Below are positions 16,204 to 38,180 of a stretch of 64,000 nt of DNA, in pieces (position 1 is the stretch's first letter; each line of letters begins with the position of its first letter). Under the pieces are notes generated by a model that was given only the letters and a program-made list of their open reading frames with translations, had not been told where the DNA came from and did no database searches. This DNA comes from Candidatus Nomurabacteria bacterium (GTDB lineage: Bacteria > Patescibacteriota > WWE3 > UBA101185 > UBA10185). Position numbers and translations under genes: made by a program. The stretch covers positions 363,118 through 427,117 of the forward strand of contig JACKGU010000001.1 in the NCBI GenBank assembly GCA_020631855.1, in the 5' to 3' direction.

Positions 16204-16348
16204 AGCCGGTGGGTTTTACGCAGCAATCAAACACCACCGGTCTACGCAGGTGGTTTATTGTAATTTATTTGAATTGCAAAGCCCAACAGGTTAGATGACG
16301 ATGTCTACTAGCTTACGCAAGCAGTTCAAGTAACGAAATTATAAAAAA
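16204..16348 (-). repeat. copy C of a 120-nt intergenic repeat family (inverted relative to copies A/B)
   Basis: The reverse complement aligns at about 75% with 26808-26930 and 37944-38180. Shared blocks: TTTATAATTTCGTTACT, AAGCTAGTAGA, GTTGGGCTTTGCAA, AAACCACCTGCGTA..GGTGG. Confidence 0.6.
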
Positions 16349-16349
16349 A

Positions 16350-19300
16350 CTATCTCTCCGCTCGGCTGCTGGTTACAGCTTGATACCACCTATATGCCGC
16401 CGTTGCAGATCCCATGCGAAACCATTGATCAAAAGGACCTATTAAATCCTCCCCGTCGGGACCTGTCGGGGGGTCATTATTATAATTAATCTCGGGTTCA
16501 ATTGGACAAATATCTACGTAATTGCCAAAATCCGGGTGGAAACCGCAAGACATAAGCCCCATGTTGCTGTGTTCTGAATCAATAAGGTTTAAAGGCAGGT
16601 TGTCGTAGCCTTCGTAAGGAAGAGGGTCGCTGCAATACTGTGCAAACCCCGGATACACTACGTATGGGTCATTGTATTGAGTAAGTTTGTGTCCACAATT
16701 TTTATAAAATGGCGATGTATATCTAGAAAATGCTCTCACAGAAGAATAGTAATCAAGATTTGAAGCTGAAGTCCCGGAATGCGCAATAAAAATTCTTGCG
16801 GCATCAACGCCCGATTCATAAAGGCCCGGAAGACAAGATTCAAATGTTGTATCTCCTTCCTCGCAAGGGGGATAAGTTTTACCAACATCAGGTTCGTTCT
16901 CGCCTAAGACCCTACCACTTATAATTGAACGGTTAGGGGCGTTTGTGCCGCCTGTTTCGTTATAATGAAGACCCGCAAATATCTCGCATGCTAAACCTGT
17001 AACATCCTCAAGCGCGGCATAAACGCCCTCAACCTGGGGGGAAACATTCGGCACATCCGATGTTGTCGGAGATAAATTCGGAGCATTCTTCAAAAAAGTA
17101 CTGGCAAAAACAGAACCGTTGCATTTACCATCAAAGCCTGGAGGTGGGGGCGTAGTCCCGGTACCATCGTCACCTTTATCAACAAGTTCGGGAGCTTCCA
17201 TTCCGGAGTATGATGTTGAATTCGGCACCTTCACATATGAGCTGACGTTTTGCAAGGTTGTCACACCACTACCGCCACTGTTCATGGCATAACGTTCTTT
17301 GTCGTAGTCGGAAAGCAAGTTTTGAGGATCAATATCGTGGAATGTCATACTGCCTGTTCTGTAGGCTTCTTGAGACGGCAGTCTAAAAGTCAGAGCAGCT
17401 AACTCAGTTGCCGCAGAGATCTCTTTAGGATGAGTCGGGTCTTCAGGAGCATACATTATGCCAGTGTATGGCCCGACAATATCCCCCCTGCACTGAGAAA
17501 GCCCGTCGGGATTATACACAGTGGCCTTTCTAAATATACACTGATACGAAGTTGCAGGAGAGATGCCCGTGCAAACAGCATCCCAACCGTATGTGTCACA
17601 GGCGGTCTCAGGAACACTAGTGCATTGAGAAACCTCACACCAATCCTCCCTTATATCACAAGATTGGCCTGCCGCCATATCTACAAAAGGCAGACACTCA
17701 CTTCCTATCATTGAAGGATCCCAATTATCCATAGTTGGCCCGCCGAACTTCGAAACAACATCAACGTACTCGGTAGAATAAGCTCCCAGGGCTCCTTGGC
17801 CACTCACAGATCCGGCAAAATCAATTTTTTCTTGGTCTGCAAATAACGTGTGGAACGTAATTAAAAAGAAAAATCTCTGTAACCACGAAATAAGCGACGG
17901 ATCTTTTGTTAAATACCTGTAACCAGAAGTAAAAGGGCTCTTTACATCTCCTTTTGTCTTGGAGTCCCACTCATATAATTTTTCTTCGCATGCACCATCT
18001 ACAAAATTGCAGCTACAAAGCAGGTAGGGCTTGCCAATCTGGTAATGTCCTTTTCCTGATCTTATAATTCCTGTATCCGGGCCGGGCATTAATTGAGGAA
18101 TACGTACCCCGTTTTCATCCAACCCAAAAGGAAGACCCGGCAACAAACGAACTGCCCCCAAAGGCCCTTTTAATCCCATGTCTTGAGCAACTTTTTCGCT
18201 AGCGTACATTTCCGAAGCAAATAAATTGGTCTCGGGAACACCTGACGGAATTATAGGTAACATGTTATAAGATTTCATATCTTGTTCCACTTCGTTATCA
18301 TCAAGACGAGCTTTTCTCGAACACGCTATATCAGGATTTCCATCGGTTAAAATACAATCCGCAGAGTCTTTAGTATTTTCATAAAATGCCTGTCCATAAA
18401 CTGTTGTGTCTATTGCAGATAAAACAGCCAAAACAGGATATTCGCTAAACGAAGAAGACGGAACTCCGTCATCAAAAGGATTTGGGAAGTCATTATAATA
18501 TTTATAATTTGTACCATCTTTGCAAACTGCAGGATTAGCTATTTTAGCTACCTCATGCAAACTTTCTAAAGCATTAGGGAGCTGCATTGTAACCGAATAG
18601 TTGTAACACGTATTCATACTTTGAGAAGGTTTTTCATTTGTTTCTGGAATTACAAGACGATTACAGGCCTCAATATTTTCACATAGGGGTAACTTGGCGA
18701 GCCTCTCTTCTTCCGTGCCTTCAACAAAAGGATCAACCTGCCTATCTTCTTCTCCTCGATACGAGCCGAAGGGGTTTTCAGTCACCTTGGCCCCTAGCCC
18801 AGTAGTACTGTCTCGGCCCTCTAAATCTTCTTTCGAGGGTTGGACGGAATAAGGCAAGCGAGTTGGCACGCCGTTTACAAACCCTACATCTTTATTGTCA
18901 TAAGAACCATCAGCTCCTTCTCGTCCTACATAAGCCTCGCGCCTGTAACCAAGGGCTATTTCAGAAGACCCCGATAAATTAAGTTCGGCCGGAGTACTGT
19001 TCTCATCTCCAAAACAAGCTAGTGGTTGTTTCTCGTTGTAAAGTTTTTGCAAAGAAAAAGTTAACGGAGCAACAGCGGGACGATCGTAATTTAAATCGGA
19101 ACAAGAAATTTTATGGTTCATTTCAACAACGTTGTTACTTAAGTCAACAGACCAGGCATCAACTACCTGATCGTCTTCTTCACACGTCAGCAGTAAATAA
19201 ACCGAGTTATTAAAAGAGCCTCCATCAGCCTTTCGCGTACATTGAATTTCATAATTTCCATCTCCATCGGTTGTAGTGGAGGCATCCCAATCAACAAAAC

Positions 19301-20516
19301 CGGAGACATTGCCGGACTCTGTATCCCAAGTGCCTTGATAACAATGCAAACCTACGCCTCTAATGGGGGCGTCTACCTTCATTCTATTTCCGTCAAGTGT
19401 GTCACGAACCGGATTAAGGTTTGTAACCTTTCCCCTTATAGTTACTTTTACATCAAATGGGTCGGTCTTCACCATACAACCATTTGGAAAACAGTCTCCG
19501 TTAATATCCCACCAACACTCCGATTCGGGCTCGTTAGGCCCGGCTATTGCATAAACCGTACCACTGGCTCCGGCGTTCACCAACTCCAAAAAAGCCAGAT
19601 ACTCCTCGGGGGTTTCAAAAGCCGAGCCGGTCAGATCTCCAATTCTAATTATTGGCGTAGCGCCCTTAGCTATTGCAGCATTTACAGCTTGAATTGTAGA
19701 AGACGCATCTGCGTCCGTTGAAATTTCGACAGTATAACCTAAGCCTGCCGACCCTACACCGTCATAAAAATAGCTCGGGGCTGGGGTGTAAGCGGCTGAG
19801 TGCGCTCCAACCTTCGAACAATCCTCATTTCCGTCTGGCCCGGGACACAATGACCTTACCGCCTCGCCCGTAACACCTCCATTGCTACCTACTGACCCAG
19901 TCGACAAAGAATGATAGAAGAAGCCCTCCGGATAACTTGCGGCGTTGCCGGTATTAAAAATGTTAAATAAAATAGTAGCCTCAATGATTGGATCTCCCTG
20001 AAGCTGAACTAGCTGCTGCTGCAATTCAGCTATAGTTTCTGGCCTATCTCTAACCTGTCTAAGGGGCGGATACCAGCCTGCCTCGGTGATAATAATCCTT
20101 TTATTTGGAACAAGACTTTTTAAACGTCCCACGTATTCCGTAATTGTACCTTGAAGCTCAGCCCCTGAATTGTATGTGTTGTATGCGTTGCCCGACAGAG
20201 CGTAAAAATCATTTAAGCTGTAGGGGGCAAGGGATGCATCCATTTCCAAAACAATAGATTGTAATAAACTTTCAGGAGCTGTTAAATTAAATGTAGGAGA
20301 TAGTAACTCAATATTATTCAGCTGACCTGCATTTTTAGCCGCCAACAAAGGCTTAGCAAAACTTGCGATTCCCCTGCCTACACACTCTGCTGTAGCAGTA
20401 GACACATTTCCGCCCGCATTAGACCTTAGGGCACCAAACCAAAAAGAAAAACCCAGCGAAGTAACAAATATAAGGGTTAATACTAACTTGTTTTGTAAAA
20501 ATTTGAGCGCAGCCAT
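16350..20516 (-). CDS. giant secreted/surface protein (1388 aa), Cys-rich C-terminal two-thirds; N-terminal region carries glycoside-hydrolase clan GH-A-like motifs
   Basis: Signal peptide/TM at the N-terminus; IIITEAGW (TExG-like) at about residue 147 and GPNEPE (NEP-like) at about residue 330; more than 60 Cys in the C-terminal region. Confidence 0.7.
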   Translation of the reverse strand: MAALKFLQNKLVLTLIFVTSLGFSFWFGALRSNAGGNVSTATAECVGRGIASFAKPLLAAKNAGQLNNIELLSPTFNLTAPESLLQSIVLEMDASLAPYSLNDFYALSGNAYNTYNSGAELQGTITEYVGRLKSLVPNKRIIITEAGWYPPLRQVRDRPETIAELQQQLVQLQGDPIIEATILFNIFNTGNAASYPEGFFYHSLSTGSVGSNGGVTGEAVRSLCPGPDGNEDCSKVGAHSAAYTPAPSYFYDGVGSAGLGYTVEISTDADASSTIQAVNAAIAKGATPIIRIGDLTGSAFETPEEYLAFLELVNAGASGTVYAIAGPNEPESECWWDINGDCFPNGCMVKTDPFDVKVTIRGKVTNLNPVRDTLDGNRMKVDAPIRGVGLHCYQGTWDTESGNVSGFVDWDASTTTDGDGNYEIQCTRKADGGSFNNSVYLLLTCEEDDQVVDAWSVDLSNNVVEMNHKISCSDLNYDRPAVAPLTFSLQKLYNEKQPLACFGDENSTPAELNLSGSSEIALGYRREAYVGREGADGSYDNKDVGFVNGVPTRLPYSVQPSKEDLEGRDSTTGLGAKVTENPFGSYRGEEDRQVDPFVEGTEEERLAKLPLCENIEACNRLVIPETNEKPSQSMNTCYNYSVTMQLPNALESLHEVAKIANPAVCKDGTNYKYYNDFPNPFDDGVPSSSFSEYPVLAVLSAIDTTVYGQAFYENTKDSADCILTDGNPDIACSRKARLDDNEVEQDMKSYNMLPIIPSGVPETNLFASEMYASEKVAQDMGLKGPLGAVRLLPGLPFGLDENGVRIPQLMPGPDTGIIRSGKGHYQIGKPYLLCSCNFVDGACEEKLYEWDSKTKGDVKSPFTSGYRYLTKDPSLISWLQRFFFLITFHTLFADQEKIDFAGSVSGQGALGAYSTEYVDVVSKFGGPTMDNWDPSMIGSECLPFVDMAAGQSCDIREDWCEVSQCTSVPETACDTYGWDAVCTGISPATSYQCIFRKATVYNPDGLSQCRGDIVGPYTGIMYAPEDPTHPKEISAATELAALTFRLPSQEAYRTGSMTFHDIDPQNLLSDYDKERYAMNSGGSGVTTLQNVSSYVKVPNSTSYSGMEAPELVDKGDDGTGTTPPPPGFDGKCNGSVFASTFLKNAPNLSPTTSDVPNVSPQVEGVYAALEDVTGLACEIFAGLHYNETGGTNAPNRSIISGRVLGENEPDVGKTYPPCEEGDTTFESCLPGLYESGVDAARIFIAHSGTSASNLDYYSSVRAFSRYTSPFYKNCGHKLTQYNDPYVVYPGFAQYCSDPLPYEGYDNLPLNLIDSEHSNMGLMSCGFHPDFGNYVDICPIEPEINYNNDPPTGPDGEDLIGPFDQWFRMGSATAAYRWYQAVTSSRAER

Positions 20517-20661
20517 TCACAACTATTATACATCAAAGCTCGTGCGTGGAGTAAAAATACTAAGAAATAATTTTTATGTTAATATTGTTAGCATGAGACC
20601 AAAAACTTTTGTCTACACTTTCATAAAATCAATATTTAATTTGCAATACTATAACGACATA

Positions 20662-21456
20662 ATGAAAGCAAAAGTATCCTTTTCAATAAGATACTACTTA
20701 ATGCTTACCCTTTTATTGTCTTTGGGATATGCTGTAGTTACAACTACAAATACCGGACCGGTAGTAATTGAAAAATATTACGAAGTACGTAACGAAGCTT
20801 TAAAATACTACCCCGATGATTTATCTATAATAGGGGAAGACGGGGTTGTCACGACAAATCAGGGGGATCCTTACTTCTTCCCGCTTCCTAAAGAAATAGA
20901 ACTTGGAGACGGCGAGATGCTTAAAAATGCGATAGTTTTTTCTAAACAAGGAACAATCGAAGACATATTCAACTATGAAAGCTTCGCACTGGTTAACAGT
21001 AAAAATATAATCTACCGAAGTAGCCCCGGTACAAATAACAAACTTGAAATAGAACCCACTAAAAACTTAGGTAATTTTACATTTACGAAGGCCGACTTAG
21101 AGAAAGCGGCTCAATACGTAGATACCTACATAAAATACACCTACGCAATAATTGGAGTAAGTGTTTTTATAGCATTCGCTTTATTTATGTTGCTATGGAT
21201 AATGACAGGAAATGTTATTTTATCTGCAATAATGACCGTGGCAAGCAAACTTATGAACAAAAAACTACCATTTGAAAAAGCCTTTCAAATTGCACTTCAT
21301 ACGGCCACACTTCCTCTTATTGTGGGGGCTCTTATTGATGCCTTTGGAATATGGATGCCTATAAGTTTCTGGTTTTCGGGACTGCATTTTCTTTTAGCAT
21401 TGATAATAATATTGAATTTAAAAGAAGAGGCACAAACTTCGCCTGCGCAAGCTTAA
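20662..21456 (+). CDS. hypothetical membrane protein
   Basis: The start is taken at the internal Met (MKAKVSF) preceding the first TM helix. The track ORF begins at 20488 inside the divergent promoter region. Confidence 0.45.
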   Translation: MKAKVSFSIRYYLMLTLLLSLGYAVVTTTNTGPVVIEKYYEVRNEALKYYPDDLSIIGEDGVVTTNQGDPYFFPLPKEIELGDGEMLKNAIVFSKQGTIEDIFNYESFALVNSKNIIYRSSPGTNNKLEIEPTKNLGNFTFTKADLEKAAQYVDTYIKYTYAIIGVSVFIAFALFMLLWIMTGNVILSAIMTVASKLMNKKLPFEKAFQIALHTATLPLIVGALIDAFGIWMPISFWFSGLHFLLALIIILNLKEEAQTSPAQA

Positions 21457-21634
21457 AAGAAATAATCGAAAATAAGAGATTGATATAGGTGTTTAAAGGA
21501 GAAAATCTCAGATCTTTTGTGAAAAGGGCACTGCATTGAAAAACATAACAACAGTGTGTTAATATTCTGTACAGTTTTGAACACTCGGCCCGTACGTAAC
21601 AACTACACAAGGCCGCAAAAAACTTTACGAGCGG

Positions 21635-21709
21635 TCCCCTGTAGCTCAATGGTAGAGCGCCCGGCTGTTAACCGGTAGGTTGGTGGTTCGAGTCCACCCG
21701 GGGGAGCCA
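21635..21709 (+). tRNA. tRNA-Asn (anticodon GUU), CCA encoded
   Basis: U1-A72 acceptor (UCCCCUG/CGGGGGA), D-arm GCUC-AAUGGUA-GAGC, anticodon loop CUGUUAA, T-loop UUCGAGU, and a G discriminator followed by CCA. Confidence 0.8.
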
Positions 21710-22945
21710 AGTAGAATCAGTAGGCTCAGAAACACCATATTTAGCTGTGACAGCAACTAAATCCACTGGTTCTAACCGTCTATTTTTCACATATTCAGGA
21801 TTTTTACCCTCCTTGAATATCAAGAAGGGTTTTTCCAAGTCAATACACAGTTTTCTGTTATTAAGCATGAGGTTCTGACCAAGTAAAGATAAGATTTCTC
21901 TTTTAACAGTAAGTCCGCCATTTTCAAATCTCTCACGAACACTTGTAGCAAAGTTGAATACATCTTCAATCTTTTTGAGATATGCCTCTCTATTTTGTTC
22001 ATCTGCACTTAGTTCATCTTTAAGCTCGTCTCGTTTAGCTTTTACTTCAACTTTAATGTCTAGGTACTCTTCGCTAGAAATCTCATTATTCATACGCATG
22101 GTCAACAAATCTGCCAACTGCTTCTCTAGTCTTTTATATTCTTTTTGTTTTGATTCCAAGATTTGAAGAGAAGTTTCAGATTCGGTTTTACTCTTTTCAG
22201 TGAGGTATTTAACCGCCCAATCACGAAACTCAATTGGTATTTCGATTGATGACACCAACTCTATTATCTGCTCTTCTAAATCTAATAATGTTATAGATTT
22301 TTGCTTGCATTTAACGTGGGGTTTTCTTTTGGAACAATGATAGTAATCATATATGCCTATATTGCCCGTTTTAGGATAGTGCTTTTCCTTATGTGTTGCC
22401 GTTATAGCACACCCACATTCAGCACAATGTATCAGACCCGTATAAAGATGTACGTGTGTCTTTGGTTTTCGTTTAAGCTTTCTGCTCAGGATTTCTTGCA
22501 CCGAGTTAAATTCCTTTTTGGTCACCATTTTGGGGTGTTCACCTTTCCGTAACTGACCCTTATACCTAAAGTAACCATAATAAAAGGGGTTACTGAAAAT
22601 GTCATATAATCCTGATTTAGATATAGGTTTGCCACCAGATTTTTTTCTCTTAATAGAGCGGTAATTCCATTGGTTATTAGCAATTTCAAGTATTTCAGGA
22701 ACTGTATATGCTCCTGTAAGCATCAAATCCCACATTTTCCTTACCAAATCGAAGCGTTCTTGGTCTTTAATGATGGTGTTTTTACCTTTTTCCTTATACA
22801 TTGTGTTTAGATAACCCGCAGGAGCAACAGAAGGTAACCACCCTTTTTCAACTTTGGATTCTAGACCATCTGCAACTCTTTCCCCTTTTACATCATTCTC
22901 AAATTTAGCATTAAGCATGTTGTATTGGAGCATTAAGATTCCCAT
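21668..22945 (-). pseudogene. 5'-truncated large serine recombinase (lacks catalytic resolvase domain); C-terminal 14 codons antisense to tRNA-Asn
   Basis: It aligns with residues from about 150 onward of the intact recombinase at 60434..62047 (GWLPSVAPAGY vs LSPTPKYGY; FSNPFYYGYF vs FRDPFYYGVL). Zn-ribbon cysteines CAECGC...HC and a coiled coil are present. The resolvase domain and its catalytic serine (conserved RSxE/DQ context) are absent. Confidence 0.65.
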
Positions 22946-24755
22946 TGGCGTGGCTTCAATCGCCTTTTTAGTATCAATAGGATACGGGCTTCAAGATTTG
23001 GTAATTTCACGAGTAGCGCGATTAGACGAAATGCAACAAGCTGAAATCTACTCCCCTCCAGCAAGTAATACAAAAATAAACGACGAGTCAATAGCAAAAA
23101 TAGCAAATGTCCAAAATGTAGAAAAAGTTTTACCTCTTATTACTCTAGTAGCGAAAGTTAACTATAATAACTCAATTTCCGACATGGCGGTATACGCTGT
23201 AACAAGCGACTATCTTGAACAATCTGCAATAAAACCTGTTAAAGGAAAAATATTCGACAACGATTTAACAAGCTTTAATCTCACTGAAGAAGATGAAAAT
23301 AAAGAGGAAGTGGCCGGGGCATCGAGCTCCCGTCAAGGCGGTGAACAGGGTGGAGAAATTTCTGCATCTCAAAACAATAATCTTAATGAGGGTCTGACGA
23401 ATATTGAAGTCGGAAAAAGAATTACAGAAGCAGAAATTTCAATATTTCCTGAAACTTGGGTTAGAGTGAGAGAAAAACCTTCCTTAGACAGCAAAATTTT
23501 AGGCTACACTAAAAGACCCGAAGGAAAGCAAACAGGCTACGAGGTCTGGGGAAACTCCTACCCGGATAATATAAACGGAACAATACAGGCTGCTGACGGC
23601 AAGGTATACGGCAAATGGGTTGAATCAAAAGTATTTTTATGGGAAGAAAAAAATAACGGCTATATTCAAGTTATTGATGAGCAAGGAAGTCAAGTACAAA
23701 AAACAGGATTTATGGCCGAAGTTAATTTAGGATTGCAGCGTTATACTCTGGAAAGACAGCCCGAAGTACTTGCAGAGGCCGACACAAGGGCCGTAACTGA
23801 TTCTACGGAAACACAAACAGATTCGCAAATAACTACAGGCACCGGGCAGGCTGCGGCAGAAGATGCAACTACTTACGAGGATTTAAAATTTGACGGAACA
23901 GACTGGATACTAATAGAAGAAGGGAATAAGACTGAACAGATTGAGAGAGTACAAGTTTCCGAAAAGGCCACAAGAGAAGCAGTAGCTAATACTGCGATGT
24001 TAGATGTTTTGGGACTAACAGAGTCCGAGGCAATAGGAAAAGAAATAGAAGTTTCTTTTATTGTTACCGCATCATTATTAGAGCCGGGGGCGGCTAAAAT
24101 AGAGTCTGTACCAACTAAATATAAAATTATTGGGGTCGTACCCCAAAAAGATGCACCATATTTTTATGTACCTTTTATAGATATTAGAAGCCTGGGAGTA
24201 ATGAATTATTCACAAGCAAAAATAATTGTGCAGGATCAGCAAAGCCTTACAGATGTAAGGAAAAAGATTGAGGCGATGGGTTTTGAAACCACATCAGTTG
24301 TAGACACAGTAGAGCAAATAAATACACTTTTTGCGACACTTAGAAAAATGCTGGCGCTTGCAGGAACCGTGGCACTAAGCGTTGCCGCACTGGGGATGTT
24401 TAATACTCTAACTGTTTCTCTTTTGGAAAGAACCAGGGAAATAGGACTTATGAAAGCAATGGGAATGAAATCTTTTGAAGTTAAGGAGCTGTTTTTAACA
24501 GAATCTATGATAATGGGAGTTTTCGGAGGAATTATAGGCGTATCCTTAGGCGCACTCGCCGGAGAGTTACTTGGGTTTATCATTTCAATATTTTCTATTT
24601 CGAAAGGTTTGGGGTATATTGATGTAGCATCAATGCCCGTCGGATTTACGCTGTTTGTGCTTTCCCTTTCATTAATAGTTGGGACTCTAACAGGAATCTA
24701 TCCCGCCCGCAGAGCCACAAATATATCAGCACTTAACGCAATGAGGTACGAATAG
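22917..24755 (+). CDS. ABC transporter permease, FtsX/MacB-like with large extracytoplasmic domain
   Basis: N-terminal TM IPIGVASIAFLVSIGYG and a long periplasmic region. The C-terminus has 3 TM helices (LAGTVALSVAALGMFNTLTVSLLERTREIGLMKAMGM...). The start was moved to the internal Met, which overlaps the recombinase fragment by 29 nt. Confidence 0.65.
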   Translation: MLYWSIKIPIGVASIAFLVSIGYGLQDLVISRVARLDEMQQAEIYSPPASNTKINDESIAKIANVQNVEKVLPLITLVAKVNYNNSISDMAVYAVTSDYLEQSAIKPVKGKIFDNDLTSFNLTEEDENKEEVAGASSSRQGGEQGGEISASQNNNLNEGLTNIEVGKRITEAEISIFPETWVRVREKPSLDSKILGYTKRPEGKQTGYEVWGNSYPDNINGTIQAADGKVYGKWVESKVFLWEEKNNGYIQVIDEQGSQVQKTGFMAEVNLGLQRYTLERQPEVLAEADTRAVTDSTETQTDSQITTGTGQAAAEDATTYEDLKFDGTDWILIEEGNKTEQIERVQVSEKATREAVANTAMLDVLGLTESEAIGKEIEVSFIVTASLLEPGAAKIESVPTKYKIIGVVPQKDAPYFYVPFIDIRSLGVMNYSQAKIIVQDQQSLTDVRKKIEAMGFETTSVVDTVEQINTLFATLRKMLALAGTVALSVAALGMFNTLTVSLLERTREIGLMKAMGMKSFEVKELFLTESMIMGVFGGIIGVSLGALAGELLGFIISIFSISKGLGYIDVASMPVGFTLFVLSLSLIVGTLTGIYPARRATNISALNAMRYE

Positions 24756-24790
24756 TACCTCTCTAAGAAAATTTATTGGAGGGGCTAAAA

Positions 24791-25360
24791 TTACTCCCCT
24801 AAAATTATGATGGCAACTTTCCGGGCCAGCTCTTTCAACTGCTCGTTGTCTGCAGTGTTTGGCGTTCTATCAACACGCACAAACTTGTTCGGCGTCATTA
24901 CTAAATAAATAGCGTTAATATTTCCGTCATCTTGCATTGCAATAAAATGTTCCATAGGAATGGAGGAGTCTGTTTCGATAGATCTTCCAGCAATCTTGTG
25001 TCCTTCTTTTTGAGTGTCTGCAGACAAGTAAGAAACTTGAACGAGGATGTGTTCATAACGTGCTTTGTTTGTGAAATATGTGCAACCCGTGCCTGTACTT
25101 GTAGAGGAATCAGACACTTCCTGAATCGGTATGCCAATAATATCTGAAACCAGTTCTGAAGGAACTTCTTCACAAACCGAAAGCCCAAAAGAATCTTGGC
25201 CATCCATAGGTCTTTTAGCTACGTATTTTTGCGAACCTAATTGCTGTTCTTCAATTGTTACTGAGGTATTATTTTTTGGGGTTTGGCTAGTTTTAGAAAG
25301 TACAATAAGACCGAAAGATACAGCAACTAAAACTGCCCCCACGAGAATTATTTTTTTCAT
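24791..25360 (-). CDS. hypothetical secreted/lipoprotein-like protein
   Basis: 189 aa with N-terminal signal MKKIILVGAVLVAVSFG. Confidence 0.4.
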   Translation of the reverse strand: MKKIILVGAVLVAVSFGLIVLSKTSQTPKNNTSVTIEEQQLGSQKYVAKRPMDGQDSFGLSVCEEVPSELVSDIIGIPIQEVSDSSTSTGTGCTYFTNKARYEHILVQVSYLSADTQKEGHKIAGRSIETDSSIPMEHFIAMQDDGNINAIYLVMTPNKFVRVDRTPNTADNEQLKELARKVAIIILGE

Positions 25361-25407
25361 ATTCTGATTATATGCCGTTAATTTAAAAAAATATAGCGAG
25401 ACCGATT

Positions 25408-26775: not shown

Positions 26776-26807
26776 AAATTAATTCTAACATAAATAAGTG
26801 CATTAAT

Positions 26808-26930
26808 TTTTATAATTTCGTTACTAAAACTACTTACATAAGCTAGTAGATGTGGTTTACCCAACATGTTGGGCTTTGCAACGCAAAGAAGGTACGGCAA
26901 ACCACTTGCGTAAGCTGGCAGTGTTTAATA
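26808..26930 (+). repeat. copy A of 120-nt intergenic repeat family
   Basis: TTTATAATTTCGTTACT...AAGCTAGTAGATG...CCCAACATGTTGGG (perfect 14-bp palindrome)...GCAAACCACTTGCGTAAGCTGG. It sits between the stop of 26942..28624 and the start of 25408..26775. Confidence 0.6.
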
Positions 26931-28624: not shown

Positions 28625-28635
28625 GTAGTTATATT

Positions 28636-30507: not shown

Positions 30508-30552
30508 CTAATTTCTTTCCACAATATAACAAATTATGGCACAATATAATAG

Positions 30553-31869
30553 ATGAGCCCACTCGCCCAAGAACCAATTTCAATAGCTGAAGATAATAAT
30601 TTAATAATTAACAATACCGACGAAGTTCGGGAGAGCTTAATAGATCAACTTATTTACTCTGCAGTGTTCGGCTCGGGCAAGAAAAAGGGCGACGCTAGGT
30701 GGATAATAAAAAAAATTGGCCAAAAACTAGGAGTAAACTTTGCTTCAATAAACGTTTTTTACAAGAAACGTGCTAAAGAGAGCTCGATAAAACCATTCAC
30801 AGTTCCGGCATTTAATATTAGGGGTCTTACATACGACACGGCTCGCACACTTTTTAAAACCGCAAAAAAATTAAATACGGATGCTTTTGTTATAGAAATA
30901 GCAAGAAGCGAAATGAACTACTCTAAACAAAACCCCGAAGAATTTGCGACATGCGTTATAGCAGCAGCAATTAAAGAAAACTACACATGGCCAATATATC
31001 TACAAGGAGACCACTTTCAGGCAAAAGCTAAATCGCCCGGCATTGCAGATGTAGGTGAAATGGAAGCCTTAAAAAAATTAATTTCTGAGGCAGTTGCTGA
31101 AGGATTCTACAACATAGACATCGACACCTCCACCCTAGTAGATCTTGGACAAAAAACAATACAGAAACAGCAACTGCCGAACATACTAGCCACAGCCGAA
31201 CTCACCGACTTTATTAGAACAACCTACACCTCACCAAATTACCCAACAATTTCAATAGGCGGGGAAATTGGCCATATAGGAGGTAAAAACAGCACCGCAG
31301 AAGAATTTGAAATATTTATGCAAGGAGTAGAATCTGAAACTCAAGGAGCTGCGGGCTTAAGCAAGATAAGCATACAAACAGGAACCAGTCATGGGGGAAT
31401 GGTAGACGACAATGGAAATATCTTAGATGTGGAGGTAGACTTCGCATTACTTAAAAATATATCCTTGATAGCGAAAAATAAATTTAATATGGCCGGAGCC
31501 GTGCAGCACGGTGCCTCAACACTACCCGACAACTTATTCAGGATGTTTCCTAAGAATCTTACTGCAGAAATACACCTAGCAACAGGAACACAAAATATAA
31601 TATTTGACCATCCCCTATTTCCGGAGACGCTAAAAAAAGGCATGGATTCTTGGGTTCTACAAAATCTTCAGAAAGAAAGAATGCCCGGATGGAACAACGA
31701 ACAAACTATTTATAAACTACGCAAAAAAACTTGGGGCCAATTTAAAAAAGATCTATGGGAAATAGACGCAAACACAAAAAAAGCCATCTTTGCTGACCTT
31801 CAAAAAAGGTTCATTTTTTTATTTGCTGAGCTTGGAATTTCAGACGTTAAAACACAAAGCCAAAACTAA
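30553..31869 (+). CDS. class II fructose-bisphosphate aldolase family protein (FbaA-type, long form)
   Basis: VPAFNIRG, FVIEIARSE, YLQGDHF, SIGGEIGHIGG, QTGTSHGG and AVQHGAS align with the E. coli FbaA motifs LPAVNCVG, PVIVQFSNGG, LHTDHC, ELGCTGGEEDG, FGNVHG and FHGGSG. Confidence 0.6.
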   Translation: MSPLAQEPISIAEDNNLIINNTDEVRESLIDQLIYSAVFGSGKKKGDARWIIKKIGQKLGVNFASINVFYKKRAKESSIKPFTVPAFNIRGLTYDTARTLFKTAKKLNTDAFVIEIARSEMNYSKQNPEEFATCVIAAAIKENYTWPIYLQGDHFQAKAKSPGIADVGEMEALKKLISEAVAEGFYNIDIDTSTLVDLGQKTIQKQQLPNILATAELTDFIRTTYTSPNYPTISIGGEIGHIGGKNSTAEEFEIFMQGVESETQGAAGLSKISIQTGTSHGGMVDDNGNILDVEVDFALLKNISLIAKNKFNMAGAVQHGASTLPDNLFRMFPKNLTAEIHLATGTQNIIFDHPLFPETLKKGMDSWVLQNLQKERMPGWNNEQTIYKLRKKTWGQFKKDLWEIDANTKKAIFADLQKRFIFLFAELGISDVKTQSQN

Positions 31870-31895
31870 CAAACATCCTATACTAAATAGTATTT

Positions 31896-32300
31896 TTGGT
31901 TTATTATCTAAATATGACAAACACAACGAAGCAAAAAACAGAGCCCGAACAAATCAGTAAAACACTTACCGAAGTGGTGCAAGACGAAAAAAGCCTTGCA
32001 ATAATAGCGCACATAGGAGGGATATTCTTTGGGATTATAGCTCCCCTTATTATATGGATTCTTCAGAAAGATAAACCAAACGCGTCATTCTCAACCCATC
32101 ATGCCAAAGAAGCACTAAATTTCCAAATATCAGTACTACTAGCAAGTGCGGTAGCGGGACTTACAACCATAGTATTAATCGGATTCTTGTTCCTACCAGC
32201 TGTTATGGTAGCGAACGTAATATTTTGTATATTAGCTGCCATAGAAGCTAATAAGGGCCTACCTTACAACTACCCCTTCTCTTTGAGGTTAGTGAAGTAG
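31896..32300 (+). CDS. small membrane protein (hypothetical)
   Basis: 134 aa with three hydrophobic helices. Confidence 0.4.
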   Translation: MVYYLNMTNTTKQKTEPEQISKTLTEVVQDEKSLAIIAHIGGIFFGIIAPLIIWILQKDKPNASFSTHHAKEALNFQISVLLASAVAGLTTIVLIGFLFLPAVMVANVIFCILAAIEANKGLPYNYPFSLRLVK

Positions 32301-32338
32301 GATCTGGTAAGTTTAAGGATTTGAAAGGTACTTAAAAT

Positions 32339-34024
32339 ATGGAAGAAAATGAAGCAGTAATTCAAAACAAAGATTTGCCCTCCGAAGCAGAAGATCAGAA
32401 AAACTCTCGCATAAATAAACTTAAGTTTAGAATTAATGGGAAAAAGTTACTAATTCTTGGGGGTGCTGTTGTTTTAATTCTTCTTCTAATCTCTGCCGTT
32501 TTAGTTAGTAATAGTAAATCTAAAAAAGTCACGCCAAGCACTGCAAACGAATCACAAGAGACTATGAAACAAAAGCCAATAAAAAGTTCAGAATACAATC
32601 CTTCAACAGAAGGGGAAGTAGTTTTGCCTTGGACACCAAACAATATAAATACTTCTCATGATACATATTATTTATTCGGTGAGGTTAAAACAGACGGTGA
32701 CCTATTTCACGTTGATTTATTCACAAATGGGGAGCTTGTTGATGATTATACGATTGGGGTAAATAATTACCTGCTAGGGTTGAATTTCGGCCTAAGCAAC
32801 AGTGGTTTCGTCATCGAGAAGGGTAGAGCTCACAAAAATTTTTATTTTCCTATTAGAGATTTAAAGGTTGGCGAAAACAATGTATCAATTAAACTTTACA
32901 CAGACGATACTAAAGAAAAAGTATTAAGTGAAAAATCGGTTATTATCACAAGATCGGATACAACCTACAATTCAGAAGTGACTTTATACAACAGCCCGAG
33001 AGAAGTTAGTGCTGAAGAGATTTTCAATAAAGCGGGCATAGATTTTGAGAACGAGAAGTTATGGGAGTACTTTCATAATCAACCGTCTTGGTTCTTAGAC
33101 AACAAAAGTAACGATTTCTTCTACGGCAAGGCTGGGGATTGGATCGACTACAAAATAGAGGCTATGGGAGAAATAGGCATTAAAAATGAAAAAACATCTT
33201 TGTACAGATTCCTTTACACTCATCCAGGCGAAGGTCCGGGTCCTAGCGCATACAATAACTCGATATACTTTTACATTGTTAACAACCAAGCATATTTCGT
33301 AACAAACACACTTGTATCAGACGAGTATTTTGCTCCAATTTACCTTTTTTATATGCAACCTTCACCTTATATATTTGAGGATACGGTGGCTGAACTGGAA
33401 GAAATTTCTATCAATGAGAATAATACCCTAATTCCATCTGCTACCGGTGTTGGAGTACTTAGATATTGTGACCCAGCTAAGATTGAGGGGGAAAAGATTT
33501 ACACCTATCAATCATTTTCTGTATATGAAAACTTTGATGTATACGACCAATACGGGAATTGTAAAAACTTTAGATTGGTTCCTAGCTACTTTAGAGACGA
33601 TACATACGGCACATACCCCGGTGCCAGTGATTGGAATGACGGAGTAACCCCAGATTTTAATAAAATGACTGTTAATCTTGATGATGGTAAAAGTCTAGAC
33701 AGTTTTTATAACCCTTATTGGTATTGGTGTGCTCGTTCCCGTGGGTACAGAACCATAGATAGCAGTAATTACTTGGAAAAAGTAGGTAAAACTTCAACAG
33801 GAGAAGATGTTTATATATACAGTACTAATATGCCGTTCCCAAAGGACAGCCATCTACTGCCCTCTTCCACAAAAGAATATCCATACTACACAGCCTCTGA
33901 GGAAAATTGGCAAGAATTTCTAAATAATCAAAAAGAAACTTACCCGGTTTTAGTAATCAAAAATGTTTTTGGTGAATGGGTGGTGTACATAAATGCCGAT
34001 TATCTTTTTGCTCCGGGTTGCTAG
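32339..34024 (+). CDS. hypothetical membrane-anchored extracytoplasmic protein
   Basis: 561 aa; N-terminal TM (LLILGGAVVLILLLISAVLV); Tyr/Asn-rich beta-type composition. Confidence 0.45.
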   Translation: MEENEAVIQNKDLPSEAEDQKNSRINKLKFRINGKKLLILGGAVVLILLLISAVLVSNSKSKKVTPSTANESQETMKQKPIKSSEYNPSTEGEVVLPWTPNNINTSHDTYYLFGEVKTDGDLFHVDLFTNGELVDDYTIGVNNYLLGLNFGLSNSGFVIEKGRAHKNFYFPIRDLKVGENNVSIKLYTDDTKEKVLSEKSVIITRSDTTYNSEVTLYNSPREVSAEEIFNKAGIDFENEKLWEYFHNQPSWFLDNKSNDFFYGKAGDWIDYKIEAMGEIGIKNEKTSLYRFLYTHPGEGPGPSAYNNSIYFYIVNNQAYFVTNTLVSDEYFAPIYLFYMQPSPYIFEDTVAELEEISINENNTLIPSATGVGVLRYCDPAKIEGEKIYTYQSFSVYENFDVYDQYGNCKNFRLVPSYFRDDTYGTYPGASDWNDGVTPDFNKMTVNLDDGKSLDSFYNPYWYWCARSRGYRTIDSSNYLEKVGKTSTGEDVYIYSTNMPFPKDSHLLPSSTKEYPYYTASEENWQEFLNNQKETYPVLVIKNVFGEWVVYINADYLFAPGC

Positions 34025-34245
34025 TTGAGGGTTTGAAGAGTAAGAAAAAGGGCATGGCGGGATAGAAGATTGATTGGCTGATATCTCCAATCCACAGAAT
34101 ACCACGAAGCAAGCTTACTAATAGCCCCTGCGCCTGCAGAGAGGCCCATTAAATAAATCTCAGGTTTGTCGTAGCCGCAAATTTCTTTTGAATGTACTAT
34201 TGCATAGTTAAGCATATTTCTTAAAAATGTATCCAAATTACCCAC
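34021..34245 (-). pseudogene. fragment of an alpha/beta-hydrolase (GxSxG nucleophile elbow YLMGLSAGAGA)
   Basis: A 74-aa ORF that contains only the nucleophile-elbow segment typical of esterases/lipases. Confidence 0.3.
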
Positions 34246-34371
34246 ACATGAGCTGCCTTTTATTAGAACTGCTGCTAAGACTTGTTCGACATATCAAGAC
34301 CCTCGAAATTTAGACACTTTTAGCCACTGGTTTCAAGGTAATTAGGGAATTTGCTTCTGTTGAATCTTCTT

Positions 34372-34390
34372 TGGTGACCCCACGGGGAAT
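34372..34390 (-). repeat. 19-bp direct repeat of the tRNA-Glu 3' end (TGGTGACCCCACGGGGAAT)
   Basis: Identical to 34507-34525 (the tRNA-Glu 3' end including CCA) and lying 117 nt downstream of the tRNA. Confidence 0.55.
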
Positions 34391-34459
34391 AAGCAAAGCT
34401 TGCATTTGTCTTCGACAAAAGTCGAACCTAGCTTCGCTATAGCTCTCTCATACCAGCAG

Positions 34460-34486
34460 CATCACATGAACAAAAACCTCCACCTA
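34460..34486 (-). terminator. intrinsic terminator downstream of tRNA-Glu (CUCCACC-GGUA-GGUGGAG + GUUUUUGUU)
   Basis: 7-bp stem with a 4-nt loop, followed by a U-rich tract on the minus-strand transcript. Confidence 0.45.
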
Positions 34487-34506
34487 CCGGTGGAGAACTT
34501 TGTTCA

Positions 34507-34581
34507 TGGTGACCCCACGGGGAATCGAACCCCGATTTACAGACTGAGAACCTGCCGTCCTAACCGTTAGACGATGGGGCC
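34507..34581 (-). tRNA. tRNA-Glu (anticodon CUC), CCA encoded
   Basis: Acceptor GGCCCCA/UGGGGUC, D-arm GUCU-AACGGUUA-GGAC as in bacterial tRNA-Glu, anticodon loop UUCUCAG, T-arm CGGGG-UUCGAUU-CCCCG. Confidence 0.7.
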
Positions 34582-34697
34582 ATAAACTCTAGAGCATAAG
34601 AGAATGGCGGTTTGGTAACCGAGAGATAACACATAAAGCCTTTCTCAATAGCCAAAGACTATAATTAAAGCTTTTTGTTTTCGACTCTAACCAAACG

Positions 34698-35327
34698 ATG
34701 AAAGCATTATACCAAAACTTCACATTTGCTCAACAAAACAATATAATAAGTATAATGACCCCAATGTTTAAAAGAAAATCCCGTACTTCTAATAATTTTG
34801 TAGAGCAAGGTGCGCAGCACCCCAACGCTTTGCCCAACCATAAAAGCAAAAAACTCAATAAAGCTACAAAGCACGTTACAAAAATACTTATAGCGTGCCT
34901 GTTTCTACTGGGGGCGGTTTTTTCATATTACTTCTTTAATTTAGAAAAAAGTGTAACCAGAACTTCAATAGATTCTGAGGTCATGGGGATTTCGAAAAAA
35001 ATTAACTCGGGAGAGACTGATACCACTTCTCTTTATTTTGAGGATAAAGTATTACACGTGCCCTCGGACGCTAAGCTTTTGAGCTCAATTCAAAATTTTG
35101 TAAGTGTGGGTAAAACTTATGAAACCAGTCTTAAACCAATTGAAATATTTGATTTCTACGCCAATAATCTTGGAAATGCGGGTTGGGAAGAGGTCAAAAG
35201 AATAACCCCGACTGATACAGAATACTATGCAACATACAGACTTGATAGAACAGAAACAACCATAAAAGTAACTTATGAACCTAGCCTACAAAAGTCAATA
35301 CTTAGTGTAACTTTATCTAGAGAGTAG
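34698..35327 (+). CDS. hypothetical membrane-anchored protein
   Basis: 209 aa; basic N-terminus then a TM (ILIACLFLLGAVFSYYFF). Confidence 0.4.
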   Translation: MKALYQNFTFAQQNNIISIMTPMFKRKSRTSNNFVEQGAQHPNALPNHKSKKLNKATKHVTKILIACLFLLGAVFSYYFFNLEKSVTRTSIDSEVMGISKKINSGETDTTSLYFEDKVLHVPSDAKLLSSIQNFVSVGKTYETSLKPIEIFDFYANNLGNAGWEEVKRITPTDTEYYATYRLDRTETTIKVTYEPSLQKSILSVTLSRE

Positions 35328-35331
35328 GTTT

Positions 35332-37266
35332 TTATTTTGTACCAACCAAATAAACAGCCCTCCACGGCTGGTACCTGGTTACAAAAGTGTCTTCAATTAT
35401 TTTTTTATCATCTTTATATACTATTCTGTTAAAACTGGCCGTTGCTCCCCAAGCAGCAAAATCTACCTGTTTAACTACACCCTTCGGCAAAGTTGGGTCG
35501 TCTTGATATAACGCAGGGGGAGGAGGAGATTGATTGGAAACAACTGGTTCCGAAATTTCAACTTTCCGACCGTCGGGAGTTCCATATAATTTAAAAGTTA
35601 AGGAATATTCGACTTCGTTGGGAACTGCTTCTATTAAAATAAAGTTTGGCGTATCATTTTTAAATTCAAAATCAAGCGATGGCTGATATATTGAGGCGTC
35701 AACTCCAACGGGCGATTCAATTTCGTAGTAACCGACACGATAGGCATGGGGGTGCCTAGTAACAATGGGTAAGCCCGAATTTAGCGCTGCGCGAAACAAA
35801 GTTGTGGATGTTTGGCACACTCCCCCACCGTCTCCCAAAACAGTACGACCGTTAGATATAACATAGGCCGTAGCATATCCGGTAGAACTACTTATTTTCC
35901 CAACCGAAGTATTAAATGAATAAATCTCTCCGGGCGGTACAAGAACTCCGTCGGTTCTCTTGGCCGCCAAAAGCAAATTATGAATTCGGGAAGGGGCTGA
36001 TCCGGTATATTTGGAAGTTCCCTCGCCAATAAGTTTGTAGATGCCGTACTTTGAGGGATCTGCCGCACCTTCTATTTTATTAAAGGTCAAAACAACAGAA
36101 GTAGGTTTTTTCTCTTCTAGACCAATATCATCAACAGGAGTTTCCCATAACAACGCGTCTTTTAAGTTTCTCTCGAATGATTTTTTTTCAAGTTCGTAGC
36201 CGGGCTCAACGAACTCAAACTCTGTTACGATATCGTTTGAGATAGCGGTTATTTTCCCTCGCGGTAATGTATTTACCTCCTGAGCAATAGCCGAGGTGTA
36301 GGCTTCGAACTGAGGTTTATTTATGACCAGGCTGTACGAATCGTCAACTTTGGAAACTTCTACCAAACTAAGCTTTTCTAAATCCGATAAAATAATAGGC
36401 TCAAAATTTGGAAAATTTGAAACACTTTCACTCCCTAACTTGCTATTACCGTTTTTCGACTCGGGATCCTTCTCGTCATCTTTGGTGACTTTTATTTTTT
36501 CTTGCGTTTCGCCCTCGCTATTGTTGCTTGCAGGTACTGCTTGAGGAACTAAAGTTATTTCATTTTTTAAAAGGGCTTTTATTTTTGGCTCAAACAATTT
36601 AAGTGCGACGGTGTTAACCTTAGGATACACTTTTTCTACTAATAAAATTTTTTGAGTAAAATCAAAATTATTTAGTGACCACAAAGACTGATCATATAAA
36701 TTTTGGTGGTCTACCTTAAAGCCAGCGGAAGATTCTACAAGAGACAAACGGCCTTCTTCATCAAGGCTAAAACGGGCGTCTTTTGCCTGCACATCAAGAG
36801 TTCCAACTATTACTGCGAAAAAGTTGTTTAAAGCCTTTTCATCATGAGTTAAAGAGGCAGGTACAGTTAACTTTTTACCTATTAGGCCGGCAATTTTGTC
36901 TTTGGTGTCTATGTAAAGATTTCCGGTGCGCCCAACTTGCAAAGCTCGTTGGACAGATTGTGACGGATTGTAAGTAATATCTAAATCAGACAAAGAGGTT
37001 GTGTAAACATTATCTTCAAAAACAAAAGATAGCTCAGAAGGCAAAGAACTTATTGTATCCGCGAGTTTTTTCTCGGCATCACCATAAGTTAAACCCCCTA
37101 CATCAACAACACCAACATATACTCCAGGAATAATTTTGCGACCAAAAAAAACATGGTAGGCTGCAAAAAATGCAAGCAAAGCGCAAAGTAAATAAAAAGC
37201 TACCAAGCCAAGTCTAAGCCGACTAAACATTTTTGAACTTAGTAATAAAAATTTGCGAAATAGCAT
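35332..37266 (-). CDS. VanW-family protein with N-terminal TM anchor
   Basis: C-terminal GGGVCQTSTTLFRAALNSGLPIVTRHPHAYRVGYY matches the VanW domain signature. Confidence 0.65.
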   Translation of the reverse strand: MLFRKFLLLSSKMFSRLRLGLVAFYLLCALLAFFAAYHVFFGRKIIPGVYVGVVDVGGLTYGDAEKKLADTISSLPSELSFVFEDNVYTTSLSDLDITYNPSQSVQRALQVGRTGNLYIDTKDKIAGLIGKKLTVPASLTHDEKALNNFFAVIVGTLDVQAKDARFSLDEEGRLSLVESSAGFKVDHQNLYDQSLWSLNNFDFTQKILLVEKVYPKVNTVALKLFEPKIKALLKNEITLVPQAVPASNNSEGETQEKIKVTKDDEKDPESKNGNSKLGSESVSNFPNFEPIILSDLEKLSLVEVSKVDDSYSLVINKPQFEAYTSAIAQEVNTLPRGKITAISNDIVTEFEFVEPGYELEKKSFERNLKDALLWETPVDDIGLEEKKPTSVVLTFNKIEGAADPSKYGIYKLIGEGTSKYTGSAPSRIHNLLLAAKRTDGVLVPPGEIYSFNTSVGKISSSTGYATAYVISNGRTVLGDGGGVCQTSTTLFRAALNSGLPIVTRHPHAYRVGYYEIESPVGVDASIYQPSLDFEFKNDTPNFILIEAVPNEVEYSLTFKLYGTPDGRKVEISEPVVSNQSPPPPALYQDDPTLPKGVVKQVDFAAWGATASFNRIVYKDDKKIIEDTFVTRYQPWRAVYLVGTK

Positions 37267-37293
37267 CCGAACTCCAAAAACCTTATTGGATAA

Positions 37294-37884
37294 CTAGGAC
37301 TTATCATTCTTTGCAGCCCCTGCATTATTCTTGGGCTTAGGCTCAACCCCTTTTGGAATAAAAGGAATACGAGGCTTTCTAATTATGTATTTCTTTGGAT
37401 CCGCACACATATCAATGACATCGTCAGCCTCGTCAAACAACTTGGTTGAACCGGTTTTGCTAAACGCTACAACCTCTGTTCGAACGCCTTGACTTTTTGC
37501 ATACTGCAACAAGTGAATGTAGTCACCATCGCCTGATATCAAAACCATAACATCTATTTTTGGAAGCATTCTAACAACATCCATGCATAGACCAACGTCC
37601 CAGTCACCTTTTTTTGAACCATCTATAAAAATTTGGAGCTCCTTTGCCTTAACCTCATACCCGCGCTGGGTAAGAGCATCAAAAAACTCCTTTTCTAAAC
37701 CAACATCTGCTTTGATAACATAAGCAAAAGCCCTAACTAAACGGCGGTTTCCCACAGACTCAGTTAAAATTCGGCCAAAGTCTACCTTTCCCGAATATAG
37801 GTTTTTAGCGGAGTAATACATATTTTGTACGTCAGCAAAGATCGCAACTCTCTGTTCCGGATGTTTTGTTGTGTCAGCATTCAT
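37294..37884 (-). CDS. NYN-domain (LabA-like) protein
   Basis: VAIFADVQNMYY, DVGLCMDV and VLISGDGDYIHLL motifs of the NYN/LabA family. Confidence 0.65.
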   Translation of the reverse strand: MNADTTKHPEQRVAIFADVQNMYYSAKNLYSGKVDFGRILTESVGNRRLVRAFAYVIKADVGLEKEFFDALTQRGYEVKAKELQIFIDGSKKGDWDVGLCMDVVRMLPKIDVMVLISGDGDYIHLLQYAKSQGVRTEVVAFSKTGSTKLFDEADDVIDMCADPKKYIIRKPRIPFIPKGVEPKPKNNAGAAKNDKS

Positions 37885-37943
37885 ACGGTCATTTTAACAG
37901 AATTACTCTAAAGATGCGAAAAACTACTTAAAGCAACTGAGAT

Positions 37944-38180
37944 TTATAATTTCGTTACTTAAACCTACTTACCCGAGCTAGTAGATGTAGTTTACCCAAC
38001 ATGTTGAGCTCTGCAAGGCAAAGAAATTACAGCAAACCACCTGCGTAAGCTGGTGATAGTTGATAATTTCGTTACTTAAACCTACTTACCCGAGCTAGTA
38101 GATGTAATTTACCCAACATGTTGAGCTCTGCAAGGCAAAGAAATTACAGTAAGCCACCTGCGTAAGCTGGTGGTAGTTGA
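37944..38180 (+). repeat. two tandem copies (period about 118 bp) of the 120-nt intergenic repeat family (copies B1, B2)
   Basis: 37944-38062 and 38064-38180 are about 95% identical to each other and about 80% identical to copy A. Confidence 0.7.

Follow-up and report, generated by a model that had tools for sequence, protein, structure and literature searches.

Palindrome-associated transposable elements (PATEs) have no inverted termini, carry near-terminal palindromes, generate no target duplication and are too short to hold a transposase (PMC3119063); elsewhere, they are reported often to encode omega RNAs (PMC10055086). All four of these defining features are found in the subject of this work, a 117-base intergenic repeat present in four copies in a 64,000-nucleotide stretch of contig JACKGU010000001.1 (this whole stretch is hereafter the window). 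The organism is labelled at NCBI as Candidatus Nomurabacteria bacterium, of the Candidate Phyla Radiation (CPR). The repeat is probably a PATE-like, transposase-less and non-autonomous derivative of the IS200/IS605 family that contains little beyond fused left and right ends. The broader claim, that it is a selfish dispersed DNA repeat rather than a selected structured RNA, is more secure.

The ends of the repeat can be compared with those of three described transposons. The cleavage motifs of IS608 are placed asymmetrically, at 19 nt on the 5′ side of the left hairpin foot and at 10 nt on the 3′ side of the right one; each hairpin carries one unpaired T, and a 4-nt guide just 5′ of it reads the corresponding motif (PMC3201880). 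The motif/guide sequences are TTAC/AAAG and TCAA/GAAT (PMC5934647). TTGAT is the target of ISDra2 (PMC2806898), and TTTAT is the experimentally defined transposon-adjacent motif (TAM) of ISGst2, an element in which positions 3 and 5 distinguish the TAM from the right-end motif (PMC10055086). In addition, a bias of insertions in favour of the lagging-strand template has been reported for the IS200/IS605 family (PMC5027513).

Anatomy of the repeat unit

A hidden Markov model (HMM) built from the four copies recovers them with nhmmer E values of 1e-31 to 1e-41 and gives no further significant match within the window. In a repeat search, the three plus-strand copies form one direct family, the 16.2-kb copy is their inverted partner, and the tandem spacing is 117 nt. 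The copies listed here are delimited as the element proper, without the TTTAT pentanucleotide on their 5′ side.

16226-16340, minus strand: copy 1, element proper, 115 nt (nhmmer E = 4e-31)
16305-16324, minus strand: left-end hairpin of copy 1, CTGCTTGCGTAAGCTAGTAG
16234-16253, minus strand: right-end hairpin of copy 1, CCACCTGCGTAGACCGGTGG
16226-16230, minus strand: terminal TTGAT of copy 1
16341-16345, minus strand: TTTAT, proposed target or TAM directly 5′ of copy 1, outside the mobile unit
26809-26813, plus strand: TTTAT (TAM) directly 5′ of copy 2
26814-26929, plus strand: copy 2, element proper, 116 nt (E = 2e-36)
26830-26849, plus strand: left-end hairpin of copy 2
26902-26921, plus strand: right-end hairpin of copy 2
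26925-26929, plus strand: terminal motif of copy 2, TTAAT
37943-37947, plus strand: TTTAT (TAM) directly 5′ of copy 3
37948-38064, plus strand: copy 3, element proper, 117 nt (E = 1e-39)
37965-37984, plus strand: left-end hairpin of copy 3
38037-38056, plus strand: right-end hairpin of copy 3, with the foot pair broken (GGTGA)
38060-38064, plus strand: terminal TTGAT of copy 3
38065-38181, plus strand: copy 4, element proper, 117 nt, abutting copy 3 head-to-tail without a spacer (E = 3e-39)
38082-38101, plus strand: left-end hairpin of copy 4
38154-38173, plus strand: right-end hairpin of copy 4
38177-38181, plus strand: terminal TTGAT of copy 4

The limits of the unit are visible in an alignment of 21 copies, where column identity rises from about 0.45 to 0.94 at TTTAT and drops from 0.90 to 0.41 past TTGAT. 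TTTAT stands directly 5′ of 19 of the 21 copies, and the 3′ end is TTGAT or a one-base variant of it. At the tandem pair, copy 4 starts with AATTTCG right after the TTGAT of copy 3, which replaces TTTAT. A second tandem junction occurs on a metagenome contig (L026, around 11080); there, a left-end fragment of 25 nt comes after a full copy, with TTGAT again in the place of TTTAT. Since both junctions (38064/38065 in the window, and that of L026) run from TTGAT into AATTTCG, the mobile unit is AATTTCG...GGTTGAT, of 117 nt, with TTTAT outside it; the agreement of this length with the tandem period supports the assignment. The left-end fragment of L026 (within 11049-11200) itself ends in TTTAT (AATTTCGTTACTCAAACCTATTTAT followed by GCAACAG), which would be in keeping with cleavage at an alternative TTTAT, a behaviour reported for mini-transposons of ISGst2.

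No terminal inverted repeats were found in the unit: the best identity between its 5′ end and the reverse complement of its 3′ end is 40% over 15 nt, against a mean of 50% for shuffled sequences. A target-site duplication is also absent, as the flanks match over at most 3 nt in 22 copies. TTTAT and TTGAT are not a duplicated target, because they differ consistently at position 3.

Between its limits, the unit is composed of AATTTCGTTACT, a guide AAAA, the left hairpin, a centre of about 52 nt that can form two small hairpins, a guide CAAA, the right hairpin, TGG and TTGAT. The foot of the left hairpin (CTACT-T-GC-GTAA-GC-T-AGTAG) is 17 nt from the left end, and that of the right hairpin (CCACC-T-GC-GTAA-GC-T-GGTGG) is 8 nt from the right end. 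The two are in direct orientation and have a common core, T-GC-GTAA-GC-T, with a T·T mismatch at the same position; one of the mismatch columns, T33, is invariant in the alignment. Their outer stems differ by two compensated pairs (T-A to C-G, twice). With DNA parameters, both hairpins fold as predicted (z = -3.5 for the left and -3.9 for the right), and both are conserved across copies.

The guides were compared with the motifs through a pairing rule derived from the IS608 sequences and contacts (-1 with G4, -3 with G1, -4 with G2, and the A at -2 unpaired). By this rule, each guide fits the motif of its own end (AAAA on the left with TTTAT, CAAA on the right with TTGAT), a fit that holds at the level of the consensus, covariation within the family being sparse. 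The single difference between the guides (A vs C) complements the single difference between the motifs (T vs G).

The coding content of the unit is negligible. At 117 nt, it is too short for a transposase, and its only open reading frame (ORF), of 15 codons, was rejected as a gene because the start codon is not conserved, the ATG being lost in several copies. At the 5′ edge, the TTTAT/AAT junction creates a TATAAT that is kept in 19 of the 21 copies; it could double as a -10 box, and transcription of the copies is therefore possible. At two loci, the upstream gene has as its stop codon the TAA across the TTTAT/AA junction.

A preliminary description of this DNA had reported four copies of the repeat, two of them in tandem, and all were found essentially where it had placed them. 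The conserved blocks that it quoted exist, as does its perfect 14-bp palindrome, CCCAACATGTTGGG, which belongs to the 26.8-kb copy. It had also noted that copies follow the stops of large minus-strand genes and lie upstream of other gene starts, a context confirmed at all three loci. At the first, a minus-strand gene of 1388 aa stops 3 nt before the 16.2-kb copy begins; the 26.8-kb copy is flanked by the stop codon of a 560-aa gene and the start codon of a 455-aa one, and is antisense to both genes; and the 37.9-kb pair is 58 nt upstream of the start of a gene with an NYN domain. The span that it gave for the first locus, 16204-16348, does hold a copy but extends about 20 nt beyond the 3′ end of the element, because it takes in a stem-bearing stretch (16204-16240). 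This stretch, just 3′ of copy 1, has a 7-bp stem (CCGGTGG/CCACCGG) that reuses the 3′ arm of the right hairpin of the copy, and it also holds TGCGTAA, the hairpin core of the element. It could be a remnant of an older copy or else serve the 1388-aa gene as a terminator. Elsewhere in the window, between convergent genes, 54628-54677 (minus strand) weakly and non-significantly (nhmmer E = 0.22) resembles the right-end portion of the repeat (ACCTGCGTAA...GGCGGTGGCTGGTTAT); this could be either a solo right end in decay or merely a terminator hairpin.

Distribution, strain variation and decay

The preliminary description raised the question of whether there are copies beyond the window. A pattern scan followed by nhmmer recovered 21 distinct loci in the same organism: those of the window and at least 17 more on metagenome contigs. 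A pattern from the left part of the repeat matched 16 metagenome contigs, 14 of them real and all from two samples that also carry the genes of the window; two matches (L023 and L024) were rejected as chance hits within a coding gene. On the matched contigs, nhmmer found extra copies that do not fit the search pattern. The unbiased density is about 1 copy per 20 kb (the window and its surroundings have 4 copies in 84 kb, and 6 secondary copies were counted in about 135 kb), which by extrapolation suggests about 50 copies per genome of roughly 1 Mb. CPR or Patescibacteria genomes, of about 1 Mb, are streamlined and generally thought to be poor in transposable elements; about 50 copies would equal about 0.5% of such a genome. 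Metagenome assemblies often end within a copy, and knowledge of these breaks is useful for the assembly and annotation of CPR lineages. The copies are not part of longer duplicated segments, a possibility raised in the same description, as column identity falls from about 0.9 to about 0.4 right outside the unit.

The repeat was also sought in other genomes and elements. The pattern ATAATTTCGTTAC...GCTAGTAG, from its left part, has 0 matches in 185,579 species-representative genomes. A scan of viral contigs with the repeat pattern gave chance matches only and no copy; blastn of the consensus against plasmid and phage collections gave no match; and there is no copy in 80 loci (1.35 Mb) around SufB homologues of other genomes. 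In all, no sequence similarity to any deposited element was found in the species-representative genome, viral, plasmid and phage collections. Exact matches to proteins of the window do occur in anaerobic-digester or wastewater metagenome-assembled genomes (GCA_020631795.1, GCA_020631805.1 and GCA_020427845.1) and in several ENA, JGI and Logan assemblies. The nearest homologues come from candidate division WWE3, with identities of 48% for a VanW-domain protein (35332-37266) and 83% for SufB. Close relatives for an empty-site comparison were sought and none was found. The lineage is isolated, the 455-aa neighbour being an orphan and the VanW-domain neighbour having its nearest homologue at 48% identity.

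Strains of the organism differ at the 37.9-kb locus. One unit is present in strains L009, L010 and L120, and two are present in the window and four other assemblies, with flanks that are 100% identical over about 6 kb. The missing unit is exactly copy 3 (37948-38064), and the single-unit allele consists of TTTAT and the downstream unit. Recent slippage duplication is excluded because the tandem units differ at 4 of 120 positions while the flanks are identical. The difference of one unit fits an insertion at TTTAT or a seamless excision of the upstream unit. Ten further contigs at this locus have one or two units or are broken inside the repeat, and none is empty; in an all-against-all comparison of the metagenome loci, no other copy was covered by a second sample. 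As the number of units varies between otherwise identical strains, it provides a handle for strain typing.

The copies are 6-25% diverged from the family consensus (17% for copy 1), and because of this divergence the family may be largely fossil. Near-identical variant copies exist at unrelated loci, for instance at L014 (4883-5008) and the end of L026, which points to copying between loci; so does a variant that combines GGTGA with the junction and is common to the window locus and L026.

The preliminary description had considered a structured regulatory RNA, with covariation among the copies as the means of judging it. In the four local hairpins, 86.8% of the cells are paired in the 21 copies, against 87.3% with partners shuffled among sequences, and only one pair has changed on both sides. 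Transitions that leave a G·T number 36 on the top strand and 37 on the bottom strand. Moreover, the consensus folds far better than single copies: with DNA parameters, its z is -4.5 on the top and -3.4 on the bottom strand, whereas single copies folded as RNA on the forward strand have z from +0.2 to -0.7. Since pairing is no better than shuffled, wobble changes are symmetric and the consensus folds better than the copies, the pattern is one of neutral decay from a structured master rather than that of RNAs maintained as a family. Rfam at the gathering threshold finds only tRNAs in the whole window, and up to E = 10 it gives noise and no family match at the tandem locus. The proposal of a regulatory RNA is not supported by these results. 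Long-range pairings obtained with RNAalifold on the four copies were likewise not upheld in the 21 copies.

Neighbouring genes are co-oriented with the copies in 19 cases and opposed in 19, and all four possible arrangements occur. This rules out a leader, a terminator or any device relying on the transcription of the neighbours, in agreement with the earlier view that the repeat is neither a simple promoter nor a simple terminator. The copies are co-oriented with one another within all five multi-copy contigs. The top strand of the element lies on the G>C strand in 11 of 13 contigs and on the T>A strand in 12 of 13. The coding strands of the genome have A>T on average (+0.067), and T>A holds in all 8 contigs where most genes run with the element, which is the opposite of what coding bias predicts. 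Thus, the direction of coding is not the source of the bias. Richness in G and T is the usual composition of the leading strand, which is the sequence of the lagging-strand template. Judged from composition, the orientation of the copies appears to match the lagging-strand-template bias of IS200/IS605.

Proposed mobility and alternative explanations

We infer the transposase and the single-strand chemistry by analogy with the IS200/IS605 family. A Y1 HUH transposase (TnpA), supplied in trans, would bind both look-alike hairpins on the single-stranded top strand and would cut on the 3′ side of two motifs, the flanking TTTAT and the terminal TTGAT. The 4-nt guides that precede the hairpins would recognise the two sites through base pairing. 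The unit would then exit as a single-strand circle and reinsert 3′ of another TTTAT on the lagging-strand template, without target duplication ('peel and paste').

Several observations weigh against this proposal. Genes for a Y1 transposase, TnpB or IscB were sought with precomputed Pfam labels, phmmer with an IS200 TnpA (131 bits on Y1_Tnp) and a zinc-finger screen for TnpB, and none was seen in the window, in its 10-kb extensions or in the other contigs, altogether about 230 kb, which is about a fifth of a genome of roughly 1 Mb. The metagenome scan with the left-end pattern yielded no full-length element with these ends. Identical copies at two different loci are absent among the 21 loci, and recent activity is thus unproven. 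A true empty site was not obtained, and the exact boundaries rest on the tandem junctions, which could also come from recombination between TTTAT and TTGAT. Similarly, the single-unit allele could be the product of a homologous deletion in the first 44 identical nt. The minus strand of the window is of the leading type, and only one of the three window loci (the 16.2-kb copy) conforms to the orientation bias. Finally, the block AAAGAAATTACAG is extra conserved (0.94 vs an expected 0.87) and is complementary to TAATTTC, a sequence of the left edge that is just as conserved; the model explains neither property.

The copies could instead be a family of small RNA (sRNA) genes, each with its own TATAAT -10 box and a GC-rich terminator hairpin, that produce a trans-acting RNA of about 105 nt; orphan TnpB-type omega RNAs are included here. 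This is unlikely. The TATAAT at the 5′ edge of 19 of the 21 copies would suit such genes, but a -35 element is not conserved, the upstream flank is at background identity, and no U run follows the 3′ hairpin. The good fold of the consensus (z = -4.5 on the top vs -3.4 on the bottom strand) and the unusual conservation of AAAGAAATTACAG are also in its favour, but single copies are unremarkable as RNA folds, Rfam has no match up to E = 10, pairing is no better than shuffled with a single double-changed pair in 21 copies, and G·T changes are equal on both strands. Independent genes would be intergenic and found in any orientation, as the units are; nevertheless, the bias follows strand composition and not gene direction, which is unexpected for sRNA genes. 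PATEs elsewhere are reported often to encode omega RNAs (PMC10055086), but tnpB was not seen in the roughly 230 kb searched. It is similarly improbable that the units are functioning, promoter-bearing orphan genes of the omega-RNA type that are read into their 3′ flanks, or that they are moved by an unrecognised single-strand DNA enzyme in a CPR host without an IS200/IS605 transposase. If this were the case, the conservation of AAAGAAATTACAG, its complementarity to TAATTTC and the junction TATAAT would be functional.

Other explanations concern repeats of different origin. One of them, which is quite improbable, is an element similar to repetitive extragenic palindromes (REPs) or bacterial interspersed mosaic elements (BIMEs), not derived from insertion sequence ends and kept by a domesticated REP-associated tyrosine transposase (RAYT) or through structural roles in host DNA or RNA. 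RAYTs are Y1 HUH enzymes related to TnpA, and the repeat is hairpin-bearing, strictly intergenic, of high copy number, orientation-biased and devoid of a nearby transposase, as this explanation would have it. However, REPs are single imperfect palindromes of 20-40 nt, typically in inverted pairs, and the repeat is a fixed 117-nt composite with two direct hairpins, asymmetric end distances, distinct flanking and terminal pentanucleotides and a conserved centre; moreover, the window has no isolated single hairpins beyond one non-significant match. Still less credible is a classical miniature inverted-repeat transposable element (MITE) moved by a DDE transposase, or a spread by recombination or segmental duplication without dedicated mobility. 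Size, copy number and intergenic siting are typical of MITEs, but terminal inverted repeats and target duplications are both absent, and the end motifs consistently differ (TTTAT vs TTGAT), so there is no duplicated target. The tandem pair could stem from unequal recombination; against this, 4 positions distinguish the two tandem units in spite of identical flanks between strains, and the flanks of different loci are unrelated. Integron attC, Helitron or IS91-like and REP readings were also considered and rejected on anatomy alone.

The suggestion of a MITE-like mobile repeat in the preliminary description is therefore broadly upheld by the genome-wide and intergenic occurrence of the copies, their orientation independent of genes, their neutral decay and the one-unit polymorphism, but not in the classical sense of a MITE, in view of the missing inverted termini and target-site duplication. 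For the PATE-like derivative of IS200/IS605 that we favour, the existence of a cognate TnpA or TnpB would mean that the repeat gives the target motif, TTTAT, and the minimal ends of a compact single-strand transposon system in an unexplored phylum. Beyond its uses in assembly, typing and the study of such transposons, it is an ordinary selfish element.

Other features of the window and comparison with known systems

The window contains several further features of interest. A second, unrelated repeat occurs at 39434-44722, in a cluster of small genes with low GC content (32-34%). There, a motif of about 27 nt (TTKGTRCTAGACCCRTATGCTCAGCCA) is found six times, always on the plus strand and 70-250 nt upstream of plus-strand gene starts, and a 43-nt motif (TACGGCCAGCCATATA...TACAGGATAGA) is found five times. 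The arrangement resembles a promoter or leader module common to a set of genes that are co-regulated or cassette-like. At 49999-51834, an FG-GAP repeat gene has 192-nt tandem repeats, and its product has 483 aa in L032 and 611 aa in L033; the number of repeats thus varies between strains.

Large serine recombinase genes adjoin or overlap tRNA genes at 21635-22945 and 60414-62047. They also vary between strains, the first encoding 286 or 416 aa and the second being present or absent, and both sites are probably integrative elements at tRNA sites. The suf operon is headed by an HTH (MarR/HTH_24-like) gene, and at the start of this gene a perfect 11-bp inverted repeat (CACATATAGAT-ACTA-ATCTATATGTG, at about 16135-16160) has the look of an operator. 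In several CPR relatives (L039, L040, L041, L085 and others), the tblastn match to the 466-aa SufB spans 1,900-1,950 nt instead of about 1,370 nt, which suggests an insertion in sufB, possibly an intein.

Among described elements, the repeat may be compared with several groups. Correia, ERIC and BOX MITEs are likewise dispersed intergenic repeats of 100-150 nt that can add promoter-like or hairpin sequence and stop codons, but their termini are inverted repeats and they are usually flanked by a duplication of TA or of a short target, neither of which the repeat has. REP/BIME elements and REPINs with RAYTs are similar in that they are intergenic hairpin repeats whose Y1 HUH enzyme is encoded elsewhere. 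In contrast to REPs, which are single short palindromes, usually in inverted pairs, the repeat is two-ended, directional and 117 nt long.

The likeness to PATEs is closer. Those of Haloquadratum walsbyi and the PATE-like elements of Geobacillus stearothermophilus have similar near-terminal palindromes and, in the same way, no inverted termini and no target duplication (PMC3119063; PMC10055086). Like the repeat, PATEs are non-coding, multicopy and heterogeneous in sequence, and they can be present in genomes without an evident intact tnpA; ISGst2 has, in addition, the same flanking motif, TTTAT. Unlike known PATEs, the repeat resides in a member of the CPR or Patescibacteria whose genome is very small, its 117 nt bring it close to the lower size limit, and a parent transposon of the IS605 type with related ends was not found for it.

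IS608 and ISDra2 offer the closest parallel for the ends. As in both, the subterminal hairpins are on one strand and carry an unpaired T, the target motif lies outside the left end, and a 4-nt guide 5′ of each hairpin complements the cleavage motif, leaving the A at -2 unpaired. The orientation bias is consistent with the lagging-strand template, as it is for these transposons. The repeat also resembles IS608 in its linkers, long on the left and short on the right (17 and 8 nt, against 19 and 10 nt in IS608), and ISDra2 in its pentanucleotide motif (TTGAT). It differs from them in that tnpA and tnpB were not seen here, the hairpin sequences are unrelated and the repeat is known from sequence alone. 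Finally, and again unlike IS608 and ISDra2, its right-end motif, TTGAT, is nearly equal to its target, TTTAT, and this would permit head-to-tail self-targeting.

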